52,228 nucleotides of DNA from Anaerolineae bacterium (lineage in GTDB: Bacteria > Chloroflexota > Anaerolineae > B4-G1 > DUEL01), in NCBI GenBank assembly GCA_034435295.1, contig DAOTYD010000072.1, forward strand, positions 1-52,228, in the 5' to 3' direction. The number at the start of each line of letters is the position of its first letter. The stretch's first letter is position 1. Positions 3,758 through 41,311 of this stretch are shown here, one piece after another. A model generated the notes under the pieces. That model was not told where the DNA came from. It did no database searches and saw only the letters and a program-made list of their open reading frames with translations. The position numbers were made by a program, and so were the translations under genes.

Positions 3758-6700
3758 TCCGCCGACTGCTTCCCACCGCCGTCGCCGCGCTCATCCTGCT
3801 GCTGCTGCCCCTGCTCCTCTTTGCCCCCGTCGCCCTGGGCAACCGCACGCTGCTTCCCGTCGACGCCCTCTTCCTCTTCGAGCCGTACCGCGCTGCCGCC
3901 GCTGAGCTGGGCGTGACGAGGGTGCAAAATGGCCTGGTTGCCGACCTGATCCTGGAAAACTATGCCTGGAAGCGCTTTATCCTGCAGGCGCTGCAGAACC
4001 ACGAGCTGCCGCTGTGGGATCCCTACATCTTTGCTGGCCATCCCTTTCTCGCCAACGGCCAGCACTCGGCCCTCTATCCGCTGAGCGTCGTCTTTTACGT
4101 CCTCCCGCTATGGCGGGCCTTTGGCGTGTTTGCCTGGCTGCAACTGGGGCTGGCCGGCCTGTGGACCTATCTCTTCGCCCGCGTGCTGGGCATCCGCCGG
4201 CTGGGCGCTCTGCTGGCCGGCATCGTCTTCCAGTTCAGCGGCTTTATGGTCGTGTCGGTGGTCCACCCCATGATCATCGCCGGGGCCTCGTGGCTGCCCT
4301 TTATCCTGGCGATGGTCGAACTGATCGTCCGCCAGCGCCCGGCGCTGGGCCAGCGACCGTCCAGCCTGCCCTGGGCGCTGCTGGGAGCGGTCGGCCTGGG
4401 CTGCCACATGCTTGCCGGGCACGCCGAGAACACCTACTTTGTCCTGCTGGTCACGGCGCTGTATGTGGCCTGGCGGCTGAGCGGGCTGTTCGTCGGCGCG
4501 CTGCGCGAGCACAGGGCCGCTGGCGCAGCGCGGCGGCTGGCGCGGCCGCTGTTCTGGCTGGCGCTGATGCTGATCCTGGGGCTGGCCCTCGGCGCGGTCC
4601 AGTTCATTCCCCTGTACGAGGTCGCGGCAGATAGCTTCCGCTCCGGCGAGGCAGCGGCGACGCTGGCGCAGGTGCGCGGCTGGGCTTATCCCCCCCGCCG
4701 CCTGATCACCTTTGGCATTCCCAACTTTTTCGGCAACCCGGCCCACCACAGTTACTTTGACCTTTTCCAGTGGCGCACCGTGCCCGTCACCACGAACGCC
4801 TACGACCACCCCATCGACAGCACCGACTGGGGGATCAAGAATTATGTCGAGGGCGGCGCCTACCTGGGACTGCTGCCATTGCTGCTGGCGGTGTTGTCTA
4901 TCGCGTATCGCCCATCGCTTATCGCTTATCGCCCATCGCTTATCGCTTATCGCAAATCACACATCGCGGCAAGCGATACGCGATATGCGATAGGCGATAC
5001 GCGATATGCCGTTCTCTTCTTCACCCTGCTCAGCCTCTTTTCCCTCGGCTGCATCTTTGGCACGCCGCTCTATGCCCTGGTCTATGCCCTGCCCTACATC
5101 AGCCAGTCGCACTCTCCCTTCCGTTGGGTCTTTCCGCTGACGCTCTCGGTGGCAGTGCTGGCGGGGTTCGGGGTCGAGGAGGTGCGCAGACGGAATGGGG
5201 CGCAAGGGGTAAGGAGTGAGGAGCAAGGGACAAAGGGCAAGGGACAGGGGACAGCGGGCAGGTGGTTTCTTCTCGGCGCGTCGCCCTCGCTGGTCAGCGC
5301 GTTGGCGGCGCTGGCGTTCTGGGGCGGCCTGCTGACGCTGGCGGGGCTGGCGCTCAGCCGGCTCTTTTTCGCCCAGATCGAGCCGCTGGTGGAGCGCCTC
5401 TTCCTCGGCCTGGCGCTGGCGCCCAACGCCTTCCCCGACCACCGCGCCTTTTATTCCTACGAGTTCAAATGGATCGCTCTCTTCGGCCTGTTGCTCGCCG
5501 GGACGGGCATCGTCCTGCGTCTCAGCCGCTGCCCGATCACCCTGAAGCGACGGCCGCTGTGGGAGTTTCTGGCGCTGGGCCTGCTGGTCGTCGATATGGT
5601 CTCGTTCGGCGCGGGATTCCACCCCGCTGTCGACCCGGCGCTGCTCGACTATACCCCGCCCGTGGTCGAATTTCTGCGCCAGGACACGACCCTCTGGCGC
5701 TATGCCACCTTCACCCCGCCCGGCACGACCAAGACGATGAACGCCAACACAGGGATGTTCTACAACCTGCAGGCCGTCAACGGCTACGACTCGCTCTTTT
5801 CGCGCCAGTACGCCGACTATATGGGCCTGATCGAGGAACAGGACGAGTTGCAGTACAACCGCATCGCCTCGTTCAGCGACTGGTCGAGCCTGGACAGCCC
5901 GCTCATGGACCTCCTCAACGTCAAGTACATCCTCAGCGAGGTCGAAATCCCCAACCCGGCCAAATACCGCCTGGTCTACCGCGACGAGTCGCTCTATGTC
6001 TACGAGAACCTGGCGGCGATGAGCCGTGCGTTCACCCTGCCGGCGTCGGCGGCGGTGGTCATGCAGGACGTGGCCACGGCGCTGCGCACGTATGACCCGC
6101 ACCAGTTTGTGGTCCTGGAGAGAGAAGCGCCAGCCGCGCCAGCCGCCCCCCAGCCGGCCACGGCAACTCCCCAGACGGTCGTCGAGTACACGATGGACCA
6201 GGTGACGGTCGACGCGACGCTGGCCGGGCCGGGCTGGCTGGTGCTGGGCGACTCGTACTTTCCCGGCTGGAAGGCGTTCGTGCGGCCACAGGGAGCCGGC
6301 CCAGAGGCCGAGCGGGAGGTCGAGATCCTCCGCGCCGACGGCAACTTTCGCGCCGTCTTTCTGGAGGCAGGCGCGTGGACCGTTCGTTTCAAGTACAGCC
6401 CCAACAGCGTCAAGGTTGGCGCCTTTGTCTCTTTCATCGCCGCGATGACGCTGCTCTTCTTGAGCGGCCTCTACCTGTGGCGCTTTTTCTACCGCGAGGA
6501 GGACGACGCCAGCACGGTGCGGCGCGTGGCCAAGAACTCGCTGGCGCCGATCGTGCTCAACCTGTTCAACCGCGCCATCGAGTTTGCCTTTGCCGCGCTG
6601 GCGGCGCGCATCCTGGGGCCGGTGGGCAACGGCCGCTTTGCCACGGCAGCCAACATCTACATCTGGTTCGACATTATCGCCAACTTTGGGCTGGACATGT

Positions 6701-7980
6701 ACCTGATGCGCGAGGTGTCCAGCGACCGCAGCCGCGCGCGGCGGCTGCTGGTCAATACGAGCGTCCTGCGCCTGCTGCTCTACCTGGCGGCGGCGCCCGT
6801 CCTGGCCGCCTTCCTGGGCGGCTGGCAGGGATTGGGCTCGCCGCTGGCCGACGAGACGCTGTGGACGGTGGCTCTGCTCTACATCGGCCTGCTGCCGAAC
6901 ACCTTTGCCTACGGACTGGCGGCCCTCTTCCGCGGTTTCGAGAAACACGAGATCCCCGCCGCCATTCAGACGGTGACGACAATTGTCAAGGTGACGCTGG
7001 GGGTGCTGGCGCTGGTCGCCGGGCTGGGCATCCGCGGCATCGCCGGCGCGTCGGTCCTGACCAACGGGACGACGCTGCTCATCCTGGCCGTGCTGGCGCG
7101 GCGGCTGATCTGGCCGCACCTGCCGCCAGCGCGGGAGCGCGTCGCCTGGCCGCTGCAGCGCCTGATGCTGGCCGAGAGCTGGCCGCTGATGGTCTCGTTT
7201 CTCCTGCAATACCTCTTCCCCGGCATCAACATCCTGCTCCTGCAGCGGCTGCAAGGCGACGCCGTGGTTGGCTGGTACGATGCCGCCCGCAAATGGGTCG
7301 ACGCGCTGAATCTGATCCCGTCGGTTTTTACCTTCGCCGTCTTTCCGGTCATCTCACAGCAAGCGGCGCATGACCGCCTCGCCATGCGCCGCACCTATCA
7401 CCTGTCGGCCAAGCTGCTGCTGATCGTGGCCCTGCCAGCGGCGGTGCTCGTCAGCCTGCTGGCGACGCCGCTGGTCGGCCTGCTCAGCGGGGCCGCCTTC
7501 CTACCCGACGGCGCCATCGCCCTGCGCCTGCTGATCTGGTCGATCCCCTTGGGCTGGATCAACAGCCTGACCAACTATGCGCTGATCGCGCTCAACCGCC
7601 AGCGCTACGTCCTGGTCGCTTCGGGGGCACGGGTCTTTTTTACCCTCGTGGCGAATCTGTTGCTGGTGCCGCGCTGGAGCTATACGGCCTCGGCGTGGAT
7701 CATGATCGGCGGCGAGTTGCTGCTGGCGATCCTCTTCTACCTCGGCCTGCGCCGCCAGACGGGGCCGGTGGCCTGGGGAGCGATTGGGGTCCGCCCTCTC
7801 CTGGCCGGCCTGGCGATGGCTGCCGTGGCCTGGCTGCTGGCTCCCGTCAGCCTGGCGCTGGCGCTGGTGGCGAGCGCGGCGATATATCCGCTCGCCCTGC
7901 TCCTCCTGCGCGCCCTGGACGCGGAGGAGCGGGCCGCGCTTTCCCCCCTGCTGCCCGCTCCCCTGCGCCGCGAACGCTGA
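3754..7980 (+). CDS. Fusion protein: YfhO-like GT-C membrane glycosyltransferase (about aa 1-920) fused to a MOP/Wzx-type polysaccharide flippase (about aa 920-1408)
   Basis: The N-terminus resembles YfhO ([23 protein letters not shown], many TM segments). From about 6510 the sequence is [38 protein letters not shown], typical of Wzx/RfbX. No stop codon lies between the two parts. The RBS is ggagagg. Two in-frame repeat tracts are inside (4899-5009 and 5202-5257). Confidence 0.7.
4899..5009. repeat. Heptamer tandem-repeat hairpin (atcgcNN x8, then inverted gcgatNN x5) inside the YfhO fusion CDS
   Basis: The left arm tatcgcgtatcgcc (4899-4912) is the exact complement of ggcgatacgcgata (4993-5006). 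Period 7 nt. It is translated as [38 protein letters not shown]. Confidence 0.85.
5202..5257. repeat. Purine-rich degenerate heptamer tract (8 x 7 nt) inside the YfhO fusion CDS
   Basis: gcaaggg gtaagga gtgagga gcaaggg acaaagg gcaaggg acagggg acagcgg, translated as [20 protein letters not shown]. Confidence 0.7.
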
Positions 7981-31393: not shown

Positions 31394-31422
31394 TTGACAA
31401 TCTTTCCCTTTTGCGGCATAAT
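31394..31422 (+). promoter_or_regulatory. Promoter TTGACA-N17-CATAAT driving the T-box leader
   Basis: ttgaca at 31394-31399, a 17-nt spacer, and cataat at 31417-31422. Confidence 0.7.
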
Positions 31423-31444
31423 CGCGTCAACAACCGGATCATGA

Positions 31445-31725
31445 CAAAGGCTGTGACGGAGAGAGTGGGCGGGACCTTTGGGACGCCAGGGAGGTGGGGC
31501 CTGAGACTGGAAGCCTCACCCGAACAAAGCCGCTGAAGTTCGCTCCCGAGCCGACGGGTGAAACCGCGTTGGCGGCAAGTAGCCCGCTCCGCAGGCCCGG
31601 CGTTATCGGGGCAGCCGATTGCGGTCCGACCGCCGTCGGCGCAAAGAGGGCTCGATACGAGCCAGGCGGGGTGGTACCGCGGGAGCCAGCGCTCTCGTCC
31701 CCACGGGCGAGGGCGCTTCTGTTAT
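31445..31725 (+). promoter_or_regulatory. T-box leader (tRNA-sensing riboswitch), specifier UUC = Phe
   Basis: gtga K-turn region at about 31453, AGAGAGU at 31460-31466, CUGAGA distal loop at 31501-31506, specifier GAAG-UUC-G (UUC at 31539-31541), F-box-like gcgttat, T-box core ggGGTGGTACCGCGGga at 31668-31684, and a terminator stem 31688-31699/31706-31717 followed by tctgttattc. Confidence 0.8.
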
Positions 31726-31762
31726 TCGAGAAGACAATATCGCCATAGGAGAAAGAGCTACC

Positions 31763-32307
31763 ATGTACCTGGCCTACCTTGATGAGTCGGGAGACACTGG
31801 CTTGGTGAACAGCCCAACGGCCTATTTTGTCTTGAGCTGCGTCCTGGTTCACGAGTCGAACTGGCTTGAGTCCCTGAATTGCAAAAAGGAGCAGCCGAAA
31901 AAGGATGGGAAGCCCGTTATGCCGCCTGGACGTTTGCGTTACAGCGCATCAATCGCTTCTGCGAAGGTCAGGAATGGGCCATGATTTTCCCTGACCAGGG
32001 ACACGGTTTCTTTATCCGCAGAAGGTTACGTCACATGCGCCGGTATCACAACGTGCCTCGCCATTGGGGAGGCGGGACGATAGCATTCCCCATCCACAGG
32101 ATCGTCGAGGACCCAAATGAGCGAGAGTCACAAGACTCCTATTTCATCCAACTGGCGGATTGGAACGCTTACGCCGCATTCCATTCCCAATATGTTTCGC
32201 CTATTCGGAGCGTGCCCGCTGACCTCTGGGACGAACTGGGTAACCTGTTTGTAAAAGAGGTGAACGCAGTCCGAGGCGGCCCGCCGGGTATCGTGCTATA
32301 CCCCTAA
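31763..32307 (+). pseudogene. DUF3800-family gene interrupted by a +1/-1 frameshift
   Basis: The N-terminal part MYLAYLDESGDTG..FVLSCVLV is in frame 2 (31763-31984). The C-terminal part ..SQDSYFIQLADWNAYAAF is in frame 1 (31870-32307). The switch is near the A5 runs at about 31883-31903. GC is visibly lower than the flanks. Confidence 0.6.
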
Positions 32308-32321
32308 ATAGGCAAAGAAAT

Positions 32322-32341
32322 GCTCCCGGTCAGCCGGGAGC
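32322..32341 (+). other. 8-bp GC hairpin (gctcccgg tcag ccgggagc) between DUF3800 and pheS
   Basis: Read directly. There is no U-tract, so terminator function is uncertain. Confidence 0.4.
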
Positions 32342-32468
32342 GGGGGAGCAGTCCTACCCCACGGCATCGGCCGGGATCAGACTGCACTCATATTGTATAG
32401 CAAGTCGAACACATTGTCAATACTGTGGATTACCATGTGCACCTTACCGATACAAGGAACAATGCAAG

Positions 32469-33491
32469 ATGGATGAGAAGCTAACACAAATCCAGGATCA
32501 GGCTTTATCCGCTTTGGAAGCAGTCCAACACGCCGACGCGCTGGCCGAGTGGCACCGCCGCTACCTGGGCAAAAAAGGCGAACTGACCCAACTGCTCCGT
32601 TCGGTCAAGGACCTGCCGCCCGAGCAGCGTCCCGCCTTTGGCCAGGCCGCCAATGAAGCCAAGGCAGTGCTGGAAGCCGCCTATCAGGCCCGCCTTGAGG
32701 CGCTGCGCCAGGAGGAACTGATGGAGGAACTGCAGCGCGGCGCCCTCGACGTCACCCTGCCCGGCCGCACCACGCCCCCCGGCCACCTCCACATCACCAC
32801 CCAGACGCTGCGCCAGATCTATGCCATCTTTGCCGAGATGGGCTTTCAGGTCTATGAAGCGCCCGACGTGGAGACCGACGAGCTCAACTTTGGCCTGCTC
32901 AACATGCCTCCCCACCACCCGGCCCGCGATATGTGGGACACCTTCTGGATCAGCGAGGGGGTGCTGCTGCGCACGCACACCTCGCCGGGCCAGATCCGCG
33001 TCATGCGCGAGCGCTGCCCCGAACCCATCCGCGTCATCCTCCCCGGCAAGTGCTACCGCTACGAGCAGATCACAGCCCGCTCCGAACACCAGTTCTACCA
33101 GGTCGAAGGGCTGGCGGTAGGCCACAACATCACCATGACCGACCTGATCGGCACGCTGAGCCAGTTTGCCCGCCGCTTTTACCGCACCGAAGGGCGCCTG
33201 CGCATCCGCAGCTCCTACTTCCCCTTCACCGAGCCCAGCATCGAAGCGGACATCGACTGCATCCTCTGCGGCGGCAAGGGCTGCCGCGTCTGCAAATACT
33301 CCGGCTGGCTGGAAATCGCCGGCGCGGGAATGGTGCATCCGGTGGTGCTCGAAAACGGCGGCTATGACCCCGCCGAATGGAGCGGCTTTGCCTTCGGCCT
33401 GGGCGTCGAGCGCCCCGCCATGCTCAAGTACGACATCGACGACATCCGCCTCTTTTACGACAACGACCTGCGCTTCCTGCGCCAGTTCTGA
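32469..33491 (+). CDS. pheS: Phenylalanine--tRNA ligase alpha subunit
   Basis: 340 aa with the class II aaRS motifs HPARDMWDTF, LLRTHTSPGQIR and GAGMVHP..FAFGLGVERPAML. Confidence 0.95.
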   Translation: MDEKLTQIQDQALSALEAVQHADALAEWHRRYLGKKGELTQLLRSVKDLPPEQRPAFGQAANEAKAVLEAAYQARLEALRQEELMEELQRGALDVTLPGRTTPPGHLHITTQTLRQIYAIFAEMGFQVYEAPDVETDELNFGLLNMPPHHPARDMWDTFWISEGVLLRTHTSPGQIRVMRERCPEPIRVILPGKCYRYEQITARSEHQFYQVEGLAVGHNITMTDLIGTLSQFARRFYRTEGRLRIRSSYFPFTEPSIEADIDCILCGGKGCRVCKYSGWLEIAGAGMVHPVVLENGGYDPAEWSGFAFGLGVERPAMLKYDIDDIRLFYDNDLRFLRQF

Positions 33492-33512
33492 CACGGCAGA
33501 AGGAGACAAGCA

Positions 33513-36116
33513 ATGAAAATCCCCCTGTCCTGGCTCAAAGAATACGTCGACATCGACCTGCCCATCCCCGCCCTGGCCGAACGGCTGACGCTGGCCGGCC
33601 TGGAAGTGGAAACGGTCAACTATATCGGCCTGCCGGGCGCGGCGCTGCCGTGGGACCCCGACAAGATCGTCATCGGCGAGGTCGTCGCCGTCCATCCGCA
33701 CCCCGAAGCCGACCGCCTGGTGCTGGCCGAGGTGAACTATGGCGGCCCCGAAACCGAGGTGGTCGTCTCCGGCCCGCCCAGCCTGAAGCGGATCGAAGGG
33801 CAGAGCGGGCTGCACCTCAAAGTGGCCTTTGCCTTCGAGGGCGCCCGCCTGTGGGACCCCTATTCCGCCGAGCCGCAGATCAAGACGCTGAAAAAGTCCA
33901 AAATCCGTGGCGTCGTCTCGCGGGCGATGGTCTGCTCGGAAAAAGAGCTGGGCCTCTCCGACGAGCACGAGGACATCATCTACCTGCCCGACGACGCGCC
34001 GGTCGGCATGCCGCTGGTCGATTACCTGGGCGACGCGGTGCTCGAGTTCGACATCAAGGGGCCGTTTGCCCATCTCTACTCGGTCGTCGGCGTGGCCCGC
34101 GAGGTGGCAGCGCTGCTGGGCGTGCCGCTGCGACGCGACGCGCTGGAGGTGCTGGAGCGCCACCCGGCCGGGTTGACCGCTACCCCCTCTTTCATCGAAC
34201 TGGAGATCGCCGATCCCGACCTCTGCCCGCGCTACTCGGCAGCGATGATCCGCGGCGTGACGGTGCGCCCATCGCCGCTGTGGATGCAGATGCGCCTGCG
34301 TTATGCCGGCATGCGCCCGATCAACAACATCGTCGACGTCACCAACTATGTGATGCTCGAACTGGGCCAGCCGCTGCACGCCTTCGACTACCACGTCCTG
34401 CGGGCGCGACCGGGGGCAGAGACGCCCGCCATCATCGTCCGCCGCGCCCGCCCCGGCGAGCAGATGCGCACGCTCGACGGCGAGCTGCGCACCTTCGACA
34501 GCGAAATGCTGCTCATCACCGACGGCGGCGGGCCGGTGGCAGTGGCCGGCGTCATGGGCGGCCTGGAAAGCGAGATCACCGACGCCACAACCGACATCCT
34601 GCTCGAATCGGCCAACTTTCACTTCCTCAGCATCCGCCGCACCTCGCGCCTGCTGGGGCTGGCCAGCGAGTCGAGCGTGCGCTTTGGCCGGCGGGTCGAC
34701 CCCGAGCTGACGGTCAAAGCAGCCGCCCGCGCCGCTCACCTCATGGTCGAACTCGGCGGCGGCACGGTCGTCCCCCTCATCGGCGACCTCTACCCCGGCC
34801 GCCAGCCGCAGCGGGTCATCGAGCTCGACCCCGCCTACGTCGCCCGCATCCTGGGCATCGAGATACCGGTCGAGGAGATAACGCGCATCCTCACCTCGCT
34901 GGAGTTCGAAGTGGGCAAGGAGGCAAGTGAGCAAGTGGGCAAGGAGGCAAGTGAGCAAGTGGGCAAGTCGGCAAGTACGCAAGAACCTGCAAACTTGCAG
35001 ACTTGCAAACTTGCAAACATCCCCGCGTCTCCCCCTCTCCGCGTCTCCATTCCCTCCCACCGCCAGGACGTCACCCGCCCGGTGGACCTGATGGAGGAAG
35101 TGGGGCGCATCTGGGGCTATGACCGCTTCCCGGCGACGCTCATCCGCGACGAGATGCCGCCGCAACGGGCCAATCCTCGCCTGGAAGGGATCGAACGGCT
35201 GCGCGACCTGCTGGTCGGCCTGGGCCTTGACGAGGTCATCACCTATTCGCTGGTTGACGCCGAAGAGGAGCGTCCCTTCCATCCCCCCGCCGCGCCCTTC
35301 GACGCAGAGAGATACCTGCGCCTGCGCAACCCCCTCTCCAGCGACCGCTCCGCCCTGCGCCAGACGCTGCTGCCTTCGCTGCTGCACGTCGCGCGCAAAA
35401 ACCTGCGCTTCCTCGACCGCGTCGCCGTGTTCGAGATCGCCGCGGTCTATCTGCCGGTGGAGGGACAGACCCTGCCCGAAGAGCCGCGCCGGCTGGGCAT
35501 CGTCATGACCGGCCCCCGCGAGGAGCGTTCGTGGATCGCCGGGCAGGACCGCTCGCCGATGGGCTTTTACGAGCTGAAGGGCGTGGTCGAGACGCTGCTG
35601 GCGCGCCTGGGGGTGGAGGGGACGTTCGTTCCGCACCAGCACCCGGCTTTCCACCCCGGCCGCTGCGCCCGGCTGCACATCGGTGAGCAGACGCCCGGCG
35701 TGATGGGCGAGCTTCATCCGCAGGTGCGAGAAGCTTTCGGCCTGCCCTCCCAGCCCGTCTGCGCCCTCGAGTTCGATCTGGAGGAGCTGTTGGCCGCCGG
35801 CGACCGGGCGCGCAAGATGAAGCCCATTTCCACCCATCCGCCGGTCTACGAGGACCTGGCGGTGGTGGTGGACGAGGCGCTGCCGGCGGCGAGTGTGTAC
35901 CGGGTCATCATGCAGGCTGGCGGCGCGTTGCTCCGTTCGGCCGAACTGTTCGATGTCTACCGTGGCGAGCAGATCGGCGCCGGGCGCAAGAGCCTGGCTT
36001 ACCGCCTCACCTACCAGGCCGACGACCGCACCCTGACCGATCAGGACGCCAGCAAATTGCGCGCCAGGATCGTGCGCACGCTGGAGCGCGAGCTGGGCGC
36101 AGCGCTGCGCGGCTAG
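33513..36116 (+). CDS. pheT: Phenylalanine--tRNA ligase beta subunit (with an in-frame repeat insertion)
   Basis: MKIPLSWLKEYVD.., tRNA-binding, B3/4, B5 and FDX-ACB domains are recognisable (IPSHRQDVTRPVDLMEEVGRIWGYD; KSLAYRLTYQ). RBS aggaga is present. Confidence 0.95.
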   Translation: MKIPLSWLKEYVDIDLPIPALAERLTLAGLEVETVNYIGLPGAALPWDPDKIVIGEVVAVHPHPEADRLVLAEVNYGGPETEVVVSGPPSLKRIEGQSGLHLKVAFAFEGARLWDPYSAEPQIKTLKKSKIRGVVSRAMVCSEKELGLSDEHEDIIYLPDDAPVGMPLVDYLGDAVLEFDIKGPFAHLYSVVGVAREVAALLGVPLRRDALEVLERHPAGLTATPSFIELEIADPDLCPRYSAAMIRGVTVRPSPLWMQMRLRYAGMRPINNIVDVTNYVMLELGQPLHAFDYHVLRARPGAETPAIIVRRARPGEQMRTLDGELRTFDSEMLLITDGGGPVAVAGVMGGLESEITDATTDILLESANFHFLSIRRTSRLLGLASESSVRFGRRVDPELTVKAAARAAHLMVELGGGTVVPLIGDLYPGRQPQRVIELDPAYVARILGIEIPVEEITRILTSLEFEVGKEASEQVGKEASEQVGKSASTQEPANLQTCKLANIPASPPLRVSIPSHRQDVTRPVDLMEEVGRIWGYDRFPATLIRDEMPPQRANPRLEGIERLRDLLVGLGLDEVITYSLVDAEEERPFHPPAAPFDAERYLRLRNPLSSDRSALRQTLLPSLLHVARKNLRFLDRVAVFEIAAVYLPVEGQTLPEEPRRLGIVMTGPREERSWIAGQDRSPMGFYELKGVVETLLARLGVEGTFVPHQHPAFHPGRCARLHIGEQTPGVMGELHPQVREAFGLPSQPVCALEFDLEELLAAGDRARKMKPISTHPPVYEDLAVVVDEALPAASVYRVIMQAGGALLRSAELFDVYRGEQIGAGRKSLAYRLTYQADDRTLTDQDASKLRARIVRTLERELGAALRG
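34915..35017. repeat. Octamer tandem-repeat hairpin (gcaagNNN x9, then NNNcttgc x3-4) inside pheT
   Basis: An exact 24-nt duplication (34911-34934 = 34935-34958). The inverted arm is cctgcaaacttgcagacttgcaaacttgcaaa. It is translated as GKEASEQVGKEASEQVGKSASTQEPANLQTCKLAN. Confidence 0.9.
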
Positions 36117-41226: not shown

Positions 41227-41300
41227 GCCGAGGTAGCTCAGCCTGGTAGAGCACCTGACTGAAAATCAGGGAGTCGCCAGTTCAAATCTGGCCCTCGGCA
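41227..41300 (+). tRNA. tRNA-Phe (anticodon GAA)
   Basis: Complete cloverleaf read by hand: acceptor gccgagg/cctcggc, D arm gctc/gagc, anticodon stem cctga/tcagg with loop ctGAAaa, T arm gccag/ctggc with ttcaaat, and discriminator A. The 3' CCA is not encoded (the next bases are cct). Confidence 0.95.
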
Positions 41301-41311
41301 CCTGGTCGCTG

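Follow-up and report, generated by a model that had tools for sequence, protein, structure and literature searches.

T-box riboswitches are usually taken to be direct sensors situated just ahead of amino-acid-related genes. Here we describe a locus in which a T-box leader for tRNA-Phe is separated from its expected targets, the synthetase genes pheS and pheT, by a two-gene cassette. The locus lies in a 52,228-nucleotide (nt) stretch of DNA, contig DAOTYD010000072.1 of the Anaerolineae bacterium assembly GCA_034435295.1, which is referred to in its entirety as the window and whose host is placed in the Anaerolineae/Thermoflexales group of the Chloroflexota. On the forward strand the order is leader promoter, T-box, intrinsic terminator, two remnants of a DUF3800 gene, pheS (32469-33491; Pfam E 1e-91) and pheT (33513-36116; identified by Pfam and in the list of open reading frames, with gene calls in two close relatives, L099 and L100); between the remnants and pheS, a small RNA gene is found on the minus strand. 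The cognate ligand, tRNA-Phe(GAA), is encoded on the forward strand at 41227-41302, where the default Rfam scan places a tRNA that ends in ...GGCA, with A73 as its discriminator. What is new here is a T-box operon that carries a DUF3800 gene together with a convergent partner RNA absent from Rfam.

Results

A tRNA-Phe-specific leader distant from pheS

The leader promoter (31394-31422, forward strand) is of the sigma-70 type, with -35 TTGACA (31394-31399) and -10 CATAAT (31417-31422) separated by 17 nt, and it matches 11 of the 12 consensus positions. It is conserved in relatives as CTTGACA...TGCGGCATAAT (loci L006, L016 and L025) or as the near-identical CTTGACA...CTGCGGCATAAT (L089), and transcription would start near 31429. 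The minus strand of 31418-31447 contains a weaker promoter-like sequence (TTGTCA-18-GATTAT, 9/12) that faces a UbiA-family gene (30468 to ~31337), and the promoter region may be divergent.

The T-box (31444-31705, forward strand) aligns with the full length of the Rfam model RF00230 (positions 1-219 of 219) at 58.5 bits, with E 6.5e-12 in a local scan and 3e-10 over the whole window. Its landmarks are AGAGAGU (31460-31466), CUGAGA (31501), a specifier loop GAAG-UUC-G (31535-31542) with the Phe codon UUC at 31539-31541, and the T-box core GGGGUGGUACCGCGG (31668-31682; GGGUGGUACCGCG at 31669-31681) with its UGGU bulge. The intrinsic terminator (31688-31727, forward strand) consists of a 13-bp stem (31688-31717) and a U-rich tail, with a folding energy of -32.9 kcal/mol. 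When the 3′ half of the terminator is withheld from folding, an antiterminator forms at ~31668-31702 with the 7-nt bulge UGGUACC; CUCUCGUCCCC is common to both structures, and the two folds compete and are mutually exclusive.

Among the 80 representative related pheS loci that formed our comparison set, 60 have a T-box core upstream of pheS. The variable base of the UGGN bulge is U in all 60 and is complementary to A73 of the window's tRNA-Phe(GAA). By strict patterns, GAAG-UUC-G is recovered in 39 of the 60 and the UUC segment in 40; in an alignment of six loci, that segment does not vary. One relative in which the cassette is intact, the metagenome contig L090, has ~95% DNA identity to the window over more than 10 kb (PheS 97%); the leaders of the two differ at 3 of 274 nt (1.1%), compared with ~5% for the region. 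Judged by sequence and predicted folding, the leader belongs to the classical T-box riboswitches that act by transcription attenuation, and its specificity is for tRNA-Phe. A sequence-only reading made earlier of the locus had recognized the near-consensus promoter, the landmarks, the UUC specifier, the core, the terminator and the complementarity of the UGGN base to A73, all of which are borne out here.

The gathering score of RF00230, which the default Rfam scan uses, is 93, and that scan of the whole window gave only the tRNA; the T-box surfaced only when E-value thresholds were used. The covariance-model search that the earlier reading had proposed as a check hence returns a significant, full-length match, yet one below the gathering score. 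Against the model, the full-length pheS leaders in relatives reach 63-83 bits, and five relatives and two further cassette loci, when rescored, gave 31-83 bits, in every case below 93. It follows that the RF00230 cut-off under-detects this group and that default annotation would miss its leaders. For the full-length pheS T-boxes of the Anaerolineae/Thermoflexales group (L006, L009, L063, L079, L081, L089 and the window), the range is 58-83 bits.

The distance from the T-box core to the pheS start codon is 787 nt in the window, compared with a median of ~113 nt in the 60 relatives, 43 of which have 160 nt or less. The comparison of spacing called for by the sequence-only reading thus agrees with its remark that pheS begins only at 32469, far from the leader. 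Its impression that the insert is visibly low in GC is likewise upheld, the values being 0.535 for the insert, 0.69 for the leader and 0.64 for pheS. That the low-GC segment between the terminator and pheS is a foreign, horizontally acquired two-gene cassette is a supported conclusion.

A DUF3800 gene inactivated by a 202-nt deletion

In the window, the first gene of the cassette exists as two remnants on the forward strand. The N-terminal remnant (31763-31882), which has a Shine-Dalgarno sequence AGGAG at 31747-31751, encodes residues 1-40 with the DESGD motif and matches positions 1-43 of the Pfam profile PF12686 (19.1 bits; cut-off 21). The C-terminal remnant (31883-32307) encodes residues ~107-248 in another frame, ends with the stop codon TAA at 32305-32307 and matches profile positions 57-148 (30.5 bits for the frame 31879-32307). 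The profile is therefore found in both reading frames, in keeping with the family assignment of the sequence-only reading. When joined, the remnants match homologs at E 1e-91, nearly all of which are 248 amino acids (aa) long, and the C-terminal remnant is 78% identical to residues 108-248 of the homolog P0001.

The nature of the lesion is seen from the alignment with L090, which has an intact 248-aa DUF3800 gene. The two are colinear up to window position 31882, where a further 202 nt follow in L090 before the counterpart of 31883; this is the sole large difference in the insert. The junction in the window reads CTGAATTGC|AAAAAGGAGCAG. Because 202 equals 3×67+1, a single deletion accounts both for the lost residues (~40-106) and for the +1 change of frame. 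The alignment with L090 established no microhomology at the deletion ends. The earlier reading was right that the gene is broken and had attributed the break to a frameshift at A5 runs; a simple frameshift of this kind is ruled out by the alignment, the A-run marking the deletion junction instead.

The same junction is present in L098, L099 and L100, three assemblies from different samples that are 99.8-99.9% identical to the window, and its identity in independent assemblies indicates that the lesion is real and fixed in the window lineage. It is accordingly very improbable that the break is an artefact of assembly or sequencing and that the true genome has an intact gene. The window apparently does come from an uncultured organism, its nearest matches being metagenome contigs and metagenome-assembled genomes; the three assemblies were nevertheless produced with different assemblers, each is 3-7 substitutions from the window, and a clean loss of 202 nt is unlike a homopolymer error. 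The read error for which the sequence-only reading had left room is thus not what is seen.

Differences between the window and L090 within the C-terminal remnant are distributed 18:5:3 over codon positions 3:2:1. This third-position bias indicates that the divergence took place mostly under purifying selection and that inactivation is recent. No intact frame was found in the window and no whole domain can be encoded, and the DUF3800 gene is a pseudogene, truly dead through a clean 202-nt deletion.

DUF3800 has been described as having an RNase H fold (Altae-Tran et al. 2023, PMC10910872). For an intact homolog, AlphaFold gave a confident model (pLDDT 90.5) with RNase HII/HIII as the best structural matches, and although these are weak (E ~1e-3, TM 0.41-0.48, ~10% identity), they agree with the published fold. 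A PDB sequence search found no relative with a solved structure. The 248-aa protein probably has a type-2 RNase H-like fold and would be a soluble, putative RNase H-like enzyme. In the model, the deletion covers three helices (62-96), the greater part of a fourth (31-52) and almost the whole of one core strand (100-107). Six invariant residues (R45, E59, K61, R82, F102 and A105) are lost with it.

A side observation concerns L098 (positions 1-600), where window-type sequence is joined, exactly at the conserved T-box core, to the 5′ half of another Phe T-box leader. This leader is 68% identical and has a promoter of its own and a helix-turn-helix gene upstream. The junction is probably a k-mer assembly chimera, although it could be a real recombinant; if so, it would show a route by which the cassette might pass between lineages.

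A convergent small RNA gene

The second gene of the cassette is on the minus strand and converges on the DUF3800 stop codon. Its promoter (32392-32420) has -35 TTGACA (32420-32415) and -10 TACAAT (32397-32392) with a 17-nt spacer and matches 11 of 12 consensus positions. Next come a structured core (32343-32389; outer stem 32385-32379 / 32354-32348), which scores 69.8 bits with the covariance model R1, and an intrinsic terminator (32312-32341) in which an 8-bp stem (32341-32322) is followed by AUUUCUUU, ending 4 nt from the stop codon. The predicted RNA would be ~73 nt in length and extend from 32385 to ~32313. The GC hairpin that the sequence-only reading had noted at 32322-32341 is present; it is not an isolated feature, however, since its T-run is on the minus strand only and it is the terminator of this RNA gene.

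The core is composed of the outer stem, an internal loop UGAU / GGGUA, an inner stem with a bulged U, and a CGAU loop. Over 11 distinct sequences, admittedly a small sample, 8 of the 13 base pairs have compensatory changes, and pairing is kept in 99.3% of the pair-by-sequence cells; none of 500 shuffles reached the observed value, and slid controls gave 0-1 compensatory pairs. One invariant U·G pair fits the minus strand only, as do four further wobbles, of which three are U·G and one is G·U. The conserved unpaired nucleotides (UGAN, CGAU and GKGUA) suggest a recognition surface.

Promoter, hairpin and terminator converge on the stop codon in all 12 loci of this DUF3800 subfamily that were examined, seven of which are in unrelated genomic contexts that do not involve pheS. 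The -35 hexamer is kept in all 12 (as TCGACA in L087 and TTGACG in L088), while the -10 box ranges from TATAAT/TACAAT to weaker variants. The spacer is 17 nt (18 in L086) and has diverged in sequence. The other pheS-linked loci retain both hexamers (TATAAT in three) with a diverged spacer, and in five loci the promoter scores 11-12 of 12. A terminator hairpin with a U-rich tail likewise follows the RNA in every locus, with differing stem sequences. Directly after the DUF3800 stop codon, the window, L081, L086 and L090 have 41 nt in common at 100% identity, compared with ~70-75% for the coding DNA; between the window and L090 there are no differences in 32305-32403, which covers the RNA and the -10 box.

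A search of 706 kb with R1, a model constructed from the sequences of this RNA, gave 12 matches (62-70 bits), each beside a DUF3800 gene, and no credible match away from one. The small RNA is thus the constant partner of this DUF3800 subfamily. No Rfam 15 family matched it at E≤10 in the window or at E≤1 in eight other loci, and a scan of viral contigs did not find the RNA block. The non-pheS loci have no shared third gene upstream of DUF3800, except between two related loci. Two syntenic non-pheS loci contain an RNase P RNA gene downstream of the cassette (L087, 2084-2537; L091, 6539-6747), and that of L087 starts ~250 nt past the small RNA promoter.

The same layout in other lineages

The order T-box, intact DUF3800 and pheS is also found in L090 and in the more distant L081, L086 and L089. 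All four keep the T-box hallmarks and the UUC specifier. Their DUF3800 proteins form a single clade with 76-87% mutual identity, compared with 67-77% relative to cassettes elsewhere. The presence of an intact gene at the same position in four other lineages indicates that the layout is, on comparative sequence grounds, a maintained arrangement and not debris, contrary to the picture of a pseudogene insert drawn from the sequence of the window. The sequence-only reading had also considered that relatives might have the gene intact at this place as a normal conserved arrangement; this is true of the four loci, and not of the 80 representative pheS loci, in which tblastn found no DUF3800. A protein of 108 aa in L081, P0112, was considered as an orthologous pseudogene and rejected, because translation shows a full open frame of 248 aa and the shorter call is a gene-calling artefact. 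In the same locus, tandem pheS genes (5494-7734; 341 and 357 aa, 52% identical) lie between the cassette and pheT, and a Phd/PIN toxin-antitoxin pair is just upstream of the T-box promoter.

The origin of the arrangement could be either one old insertion followed by many losses or lateral spread into the same site by recombination. The window and L081 have 68% identity in PheS, L090 and L081 have 82% in DUF3800, and relatives closer by PheS (84% identity) have no cassette.

Other modules occupy the corresponding spacer in further relatives. In L009 (3427-3913) and L079 (2340-2827), ParE-toxin/Phd-antitoxin pairs are found on the opposite strand between the Phe T-box and pheS, and in L063 (3059-3841) a Sir2-family gene (260 aa) is encoded there on the same strand. 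In L006 (3730-3990), a tandem array of TTGCAAGT/ATGCAAGT-like units, ~260 nt long, takes up the spacer. The T-box-to-pheS spacer therefore looks like a permissive landing site subject to recurrent insertion.

Two further differences from L090 are located downstream of the cassette. In pheT (34909-35018) there are in-frame tandem repeats, a 24-nt unit in 3.1 copies and then AACTTGCA in 4.4 copies, which encode ...GKEASEQVGKEASEQVGKSAS...; the array has a net gain of 42 nt in the window and is variable in length between close relatives. The units of the L006 spacer array resemble the AACTTGCA repeat and may represent a repeat that expands in particular lineages. Between pheS and pheT, L090 has ~81 extra nt at window positions 33496-33500.

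Discussion

The probable route of pheST transcription

The interpretation that we favour, and consider probable, is that of a T-box operon which has acquired a DUF3800 and RNA cassette, with pheST transcribed by read-through from the T-box. Under this scenario, the anticodon of uncharged tRNA-Phe would pair with UUC and its acceptor end with UGGU, and the antiterminator would form. Polymerase would then cross ~0.75 kb (~0.95 kb in relatives) to reach pheS and pheT, passing the DUF3800 remnant and the antisense copy of the small RNA gene. The sense-strand copy of the RNA terminator is a hairpin followed by GGGGGAGC, with no U-tract, and should not stop transcription. The DUF3800 gene of the relatives, with a ribosome-binding site but no evident promoter of its own, would be the first cistron of the T-box transcript, while the ~73-nt structured RNA would be the second, convergent gene of the cassette, expressed from its own strong promoter. 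In the window lineage, the recent 202-nt deletion removed the core of DUF3800, changed its frame and left the T-box, the RNA gene and pheST intact.

Read-through as the source of pheST transcription, and of co-transcription of DUF3800, is our inference from the sequence. It is favoured because a scan of the window, L090, L081, L086 and L089 found no sense-strand promoter with at least 9 of 12 matches in the interval from the RNA gene to pheS, because only ~49 nt separate the -35 box of the RNA from the pheS ATG, and because the T-box is constrained in all cassette lineages. Several points weigh against this interpretation. The promoter scan used a sigma-70-type consensus with a 9/12 threshold, which weak or non-sigma-70 promoters would evade; the window T-box, at 58.5 bits, is under the Rfam gathering score of 93; read-through could be hindered by the strong convergent promoter that lies 50-80 nt ahead of pheS, which would be odd for an essential operon; and the PheS and DUF3800 identities are as compatible with a single gain followed by many losses as with spread by recombination. 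We may speculate that the convergent promoter attenuates pheST, or that its product forms a duplex with the read-through transcript.

The sequence-only reading had posed two outcomes, dependence of pheST on read-through across the insert or escape from tRNA-Phe sensing through a new promoter. The former is favoured by the five loci without a sense promoter. The latter, in which a promoter in the 3′ part of the cassette or in 32386-32468 would serve pheST and the riboswitch would gate only DUF3800, dead in the window and live in relatives, is unlikely, even though the unusual core-to-pheS distance (787 nt compared with ~113 nt), the strong convergent promoter in between and the restriction of the scan to a sigma-70-type consensus can all be cited for it. 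In addition to the absence of a sense promoter, the narrowness of the gap before the pheS ATG and the constraint on the T-box in every cassette lineage, it has against it the lack of sense-strand conservation in this region beyond the promoter boxes of the RNA. A separate question is whether the placement of the cassette is itself functional, with the DUF3800/RNA module wired to tRNA-Phe charging. Read-through would then switch on the protein together with an antisense transcript that pairs with the partner RNA and titrates it; conversely, the RNA or its convergent transcription would tune pheST. We regard a functional placement as improbable. The pheS-linked cassettes do constitute a clade under purifying selection that occupies one and the same site in four lineages. 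A Shine-Dalgarno sequence is present for each DUF3800 gene, 45-70 nt past the T-box terminator, with no obvious promoter of the gene's own, and the sense transcript must be complementary to the small RNA over its whole length. The same cassette is found, however, in unrelated contexts without a T-box, and the window lineage has lost the protein with no visible compensating change. Moreover, the leader spacer gathers unrelated modules in other relatives (ParE/Phd, Sir2 and repeats), which argues that placement of the cassette is incidental rather than functional.

A more elaborate version of the same idea is also quite unlikely. DUF3800 and the RNA could form a two-part, RNase H-like ribonucleoprotein module that in one clade is controlled by tRNA-Phe charging and activated by translational stress, with read-through yielding the protein and an antisense transcript of its partner RNA simultaneously, the spacer being a selected niche for defence or addiction systems. 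If this were true, the window lineage would be a natural knockout that keeps the RNA only, and the selected niche would span DUF3800-RNA, ParE/Phd and Sir2 in the Anaerolineae.

Comparison with known systems

With the T-box read-through operon as our preferred interpretation, the leader can be compared with other T-box leaders of aminoacyl-tRNA synthetase genes (RF00230). It shares with them a Stem I specifier that matches the synthetase, a UGGN core, mutually exclusive terminator and antiterminator, and a promoter directly upstream. It differs in that the synthetase gene begins 787 nt past the core, beyond a foreign gene and a convergent RNA gene, and in that the first regulated cistron in relatives is DUF3800, a gene not known to take part in amino-acid metabolism.

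The small RNA has counterparts in the literature. Eleven dissimilar DUF3800-associated RNAs, DUF3800-I to -XI, have been reported, several with terminators, and their function is unknown (Weinberg et al. 2017, PMC5737381). Like these motifs, the RNA is structured, is found only beside DUF3800 genes, is encoded on the opposite strand and is followed by an intrinsic terminator (PMC5737381). It is distinguished from them by a two-stem hairpin with a conserved internal loop and CGAU loop, by a sigma-70 promoter, and by the fact that it always converges on and abuts the DUF3800 stop codon. Among the published motifs, it was compared with those held in Rfam (at least DUF3800-I and DUF3800-IX) and matched none. 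By its sequence characteristics it belongs to the DUF3800-associated kind of RNA, and it is in no Rfam 15 family. The conserved loops and covarying stems suggest that it acts through its structure rather than through antisense pairing alone.

The cassette also has a resemblance to type I toxin-antitoxin systems with 3′ overlap, in which an antisense RNA is transcribed from its own promoter and the toxin is usually a small hydrophobic membrane peptide. In both, a small RNA gene with its own promoter runs towards a protein gene and ends next to the 3′ end of the latter, and an mRNA extended by read-through would be complementary to the RNA. We reject membership of this class because the partner is predicted to be a soluble, RNase H-like protein of 248 aa, not a small hydrophobic toxin, and because a PADLOC scan gave no match for this protein. 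With regard to enzymes, type-2 RNase H (RNase HII/HIII) is the top structural match of the modelled DUF3800 protein, at the low similarity given above.

Implications

Unlike the usual case in which a T-box directly precedes the genes that it controls, the T-box here gates, or must be read through, an unrelated mobile gene and a convergent RNA before an essential synthetase is reached. This has consequences for annotation, because an assignment of the regulon from the first ORF after the riboswitch would mislead at this locus, and because the Rfam cut-off misses these leaders.

Finally, we note that what DUF3800-associated RNAs do has been a standing question since 2017. The locus supplies a defined RNA partner for one DUF3800 subfamily, complete with promoter, covarying hairpin and terminator. 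The window type, in which the protein has been lost and the RNA kept, and the L090 type, in which both are intact, are 95% identical, and they offer a natural comparison for the roles of the protein, the RNA and pheST.

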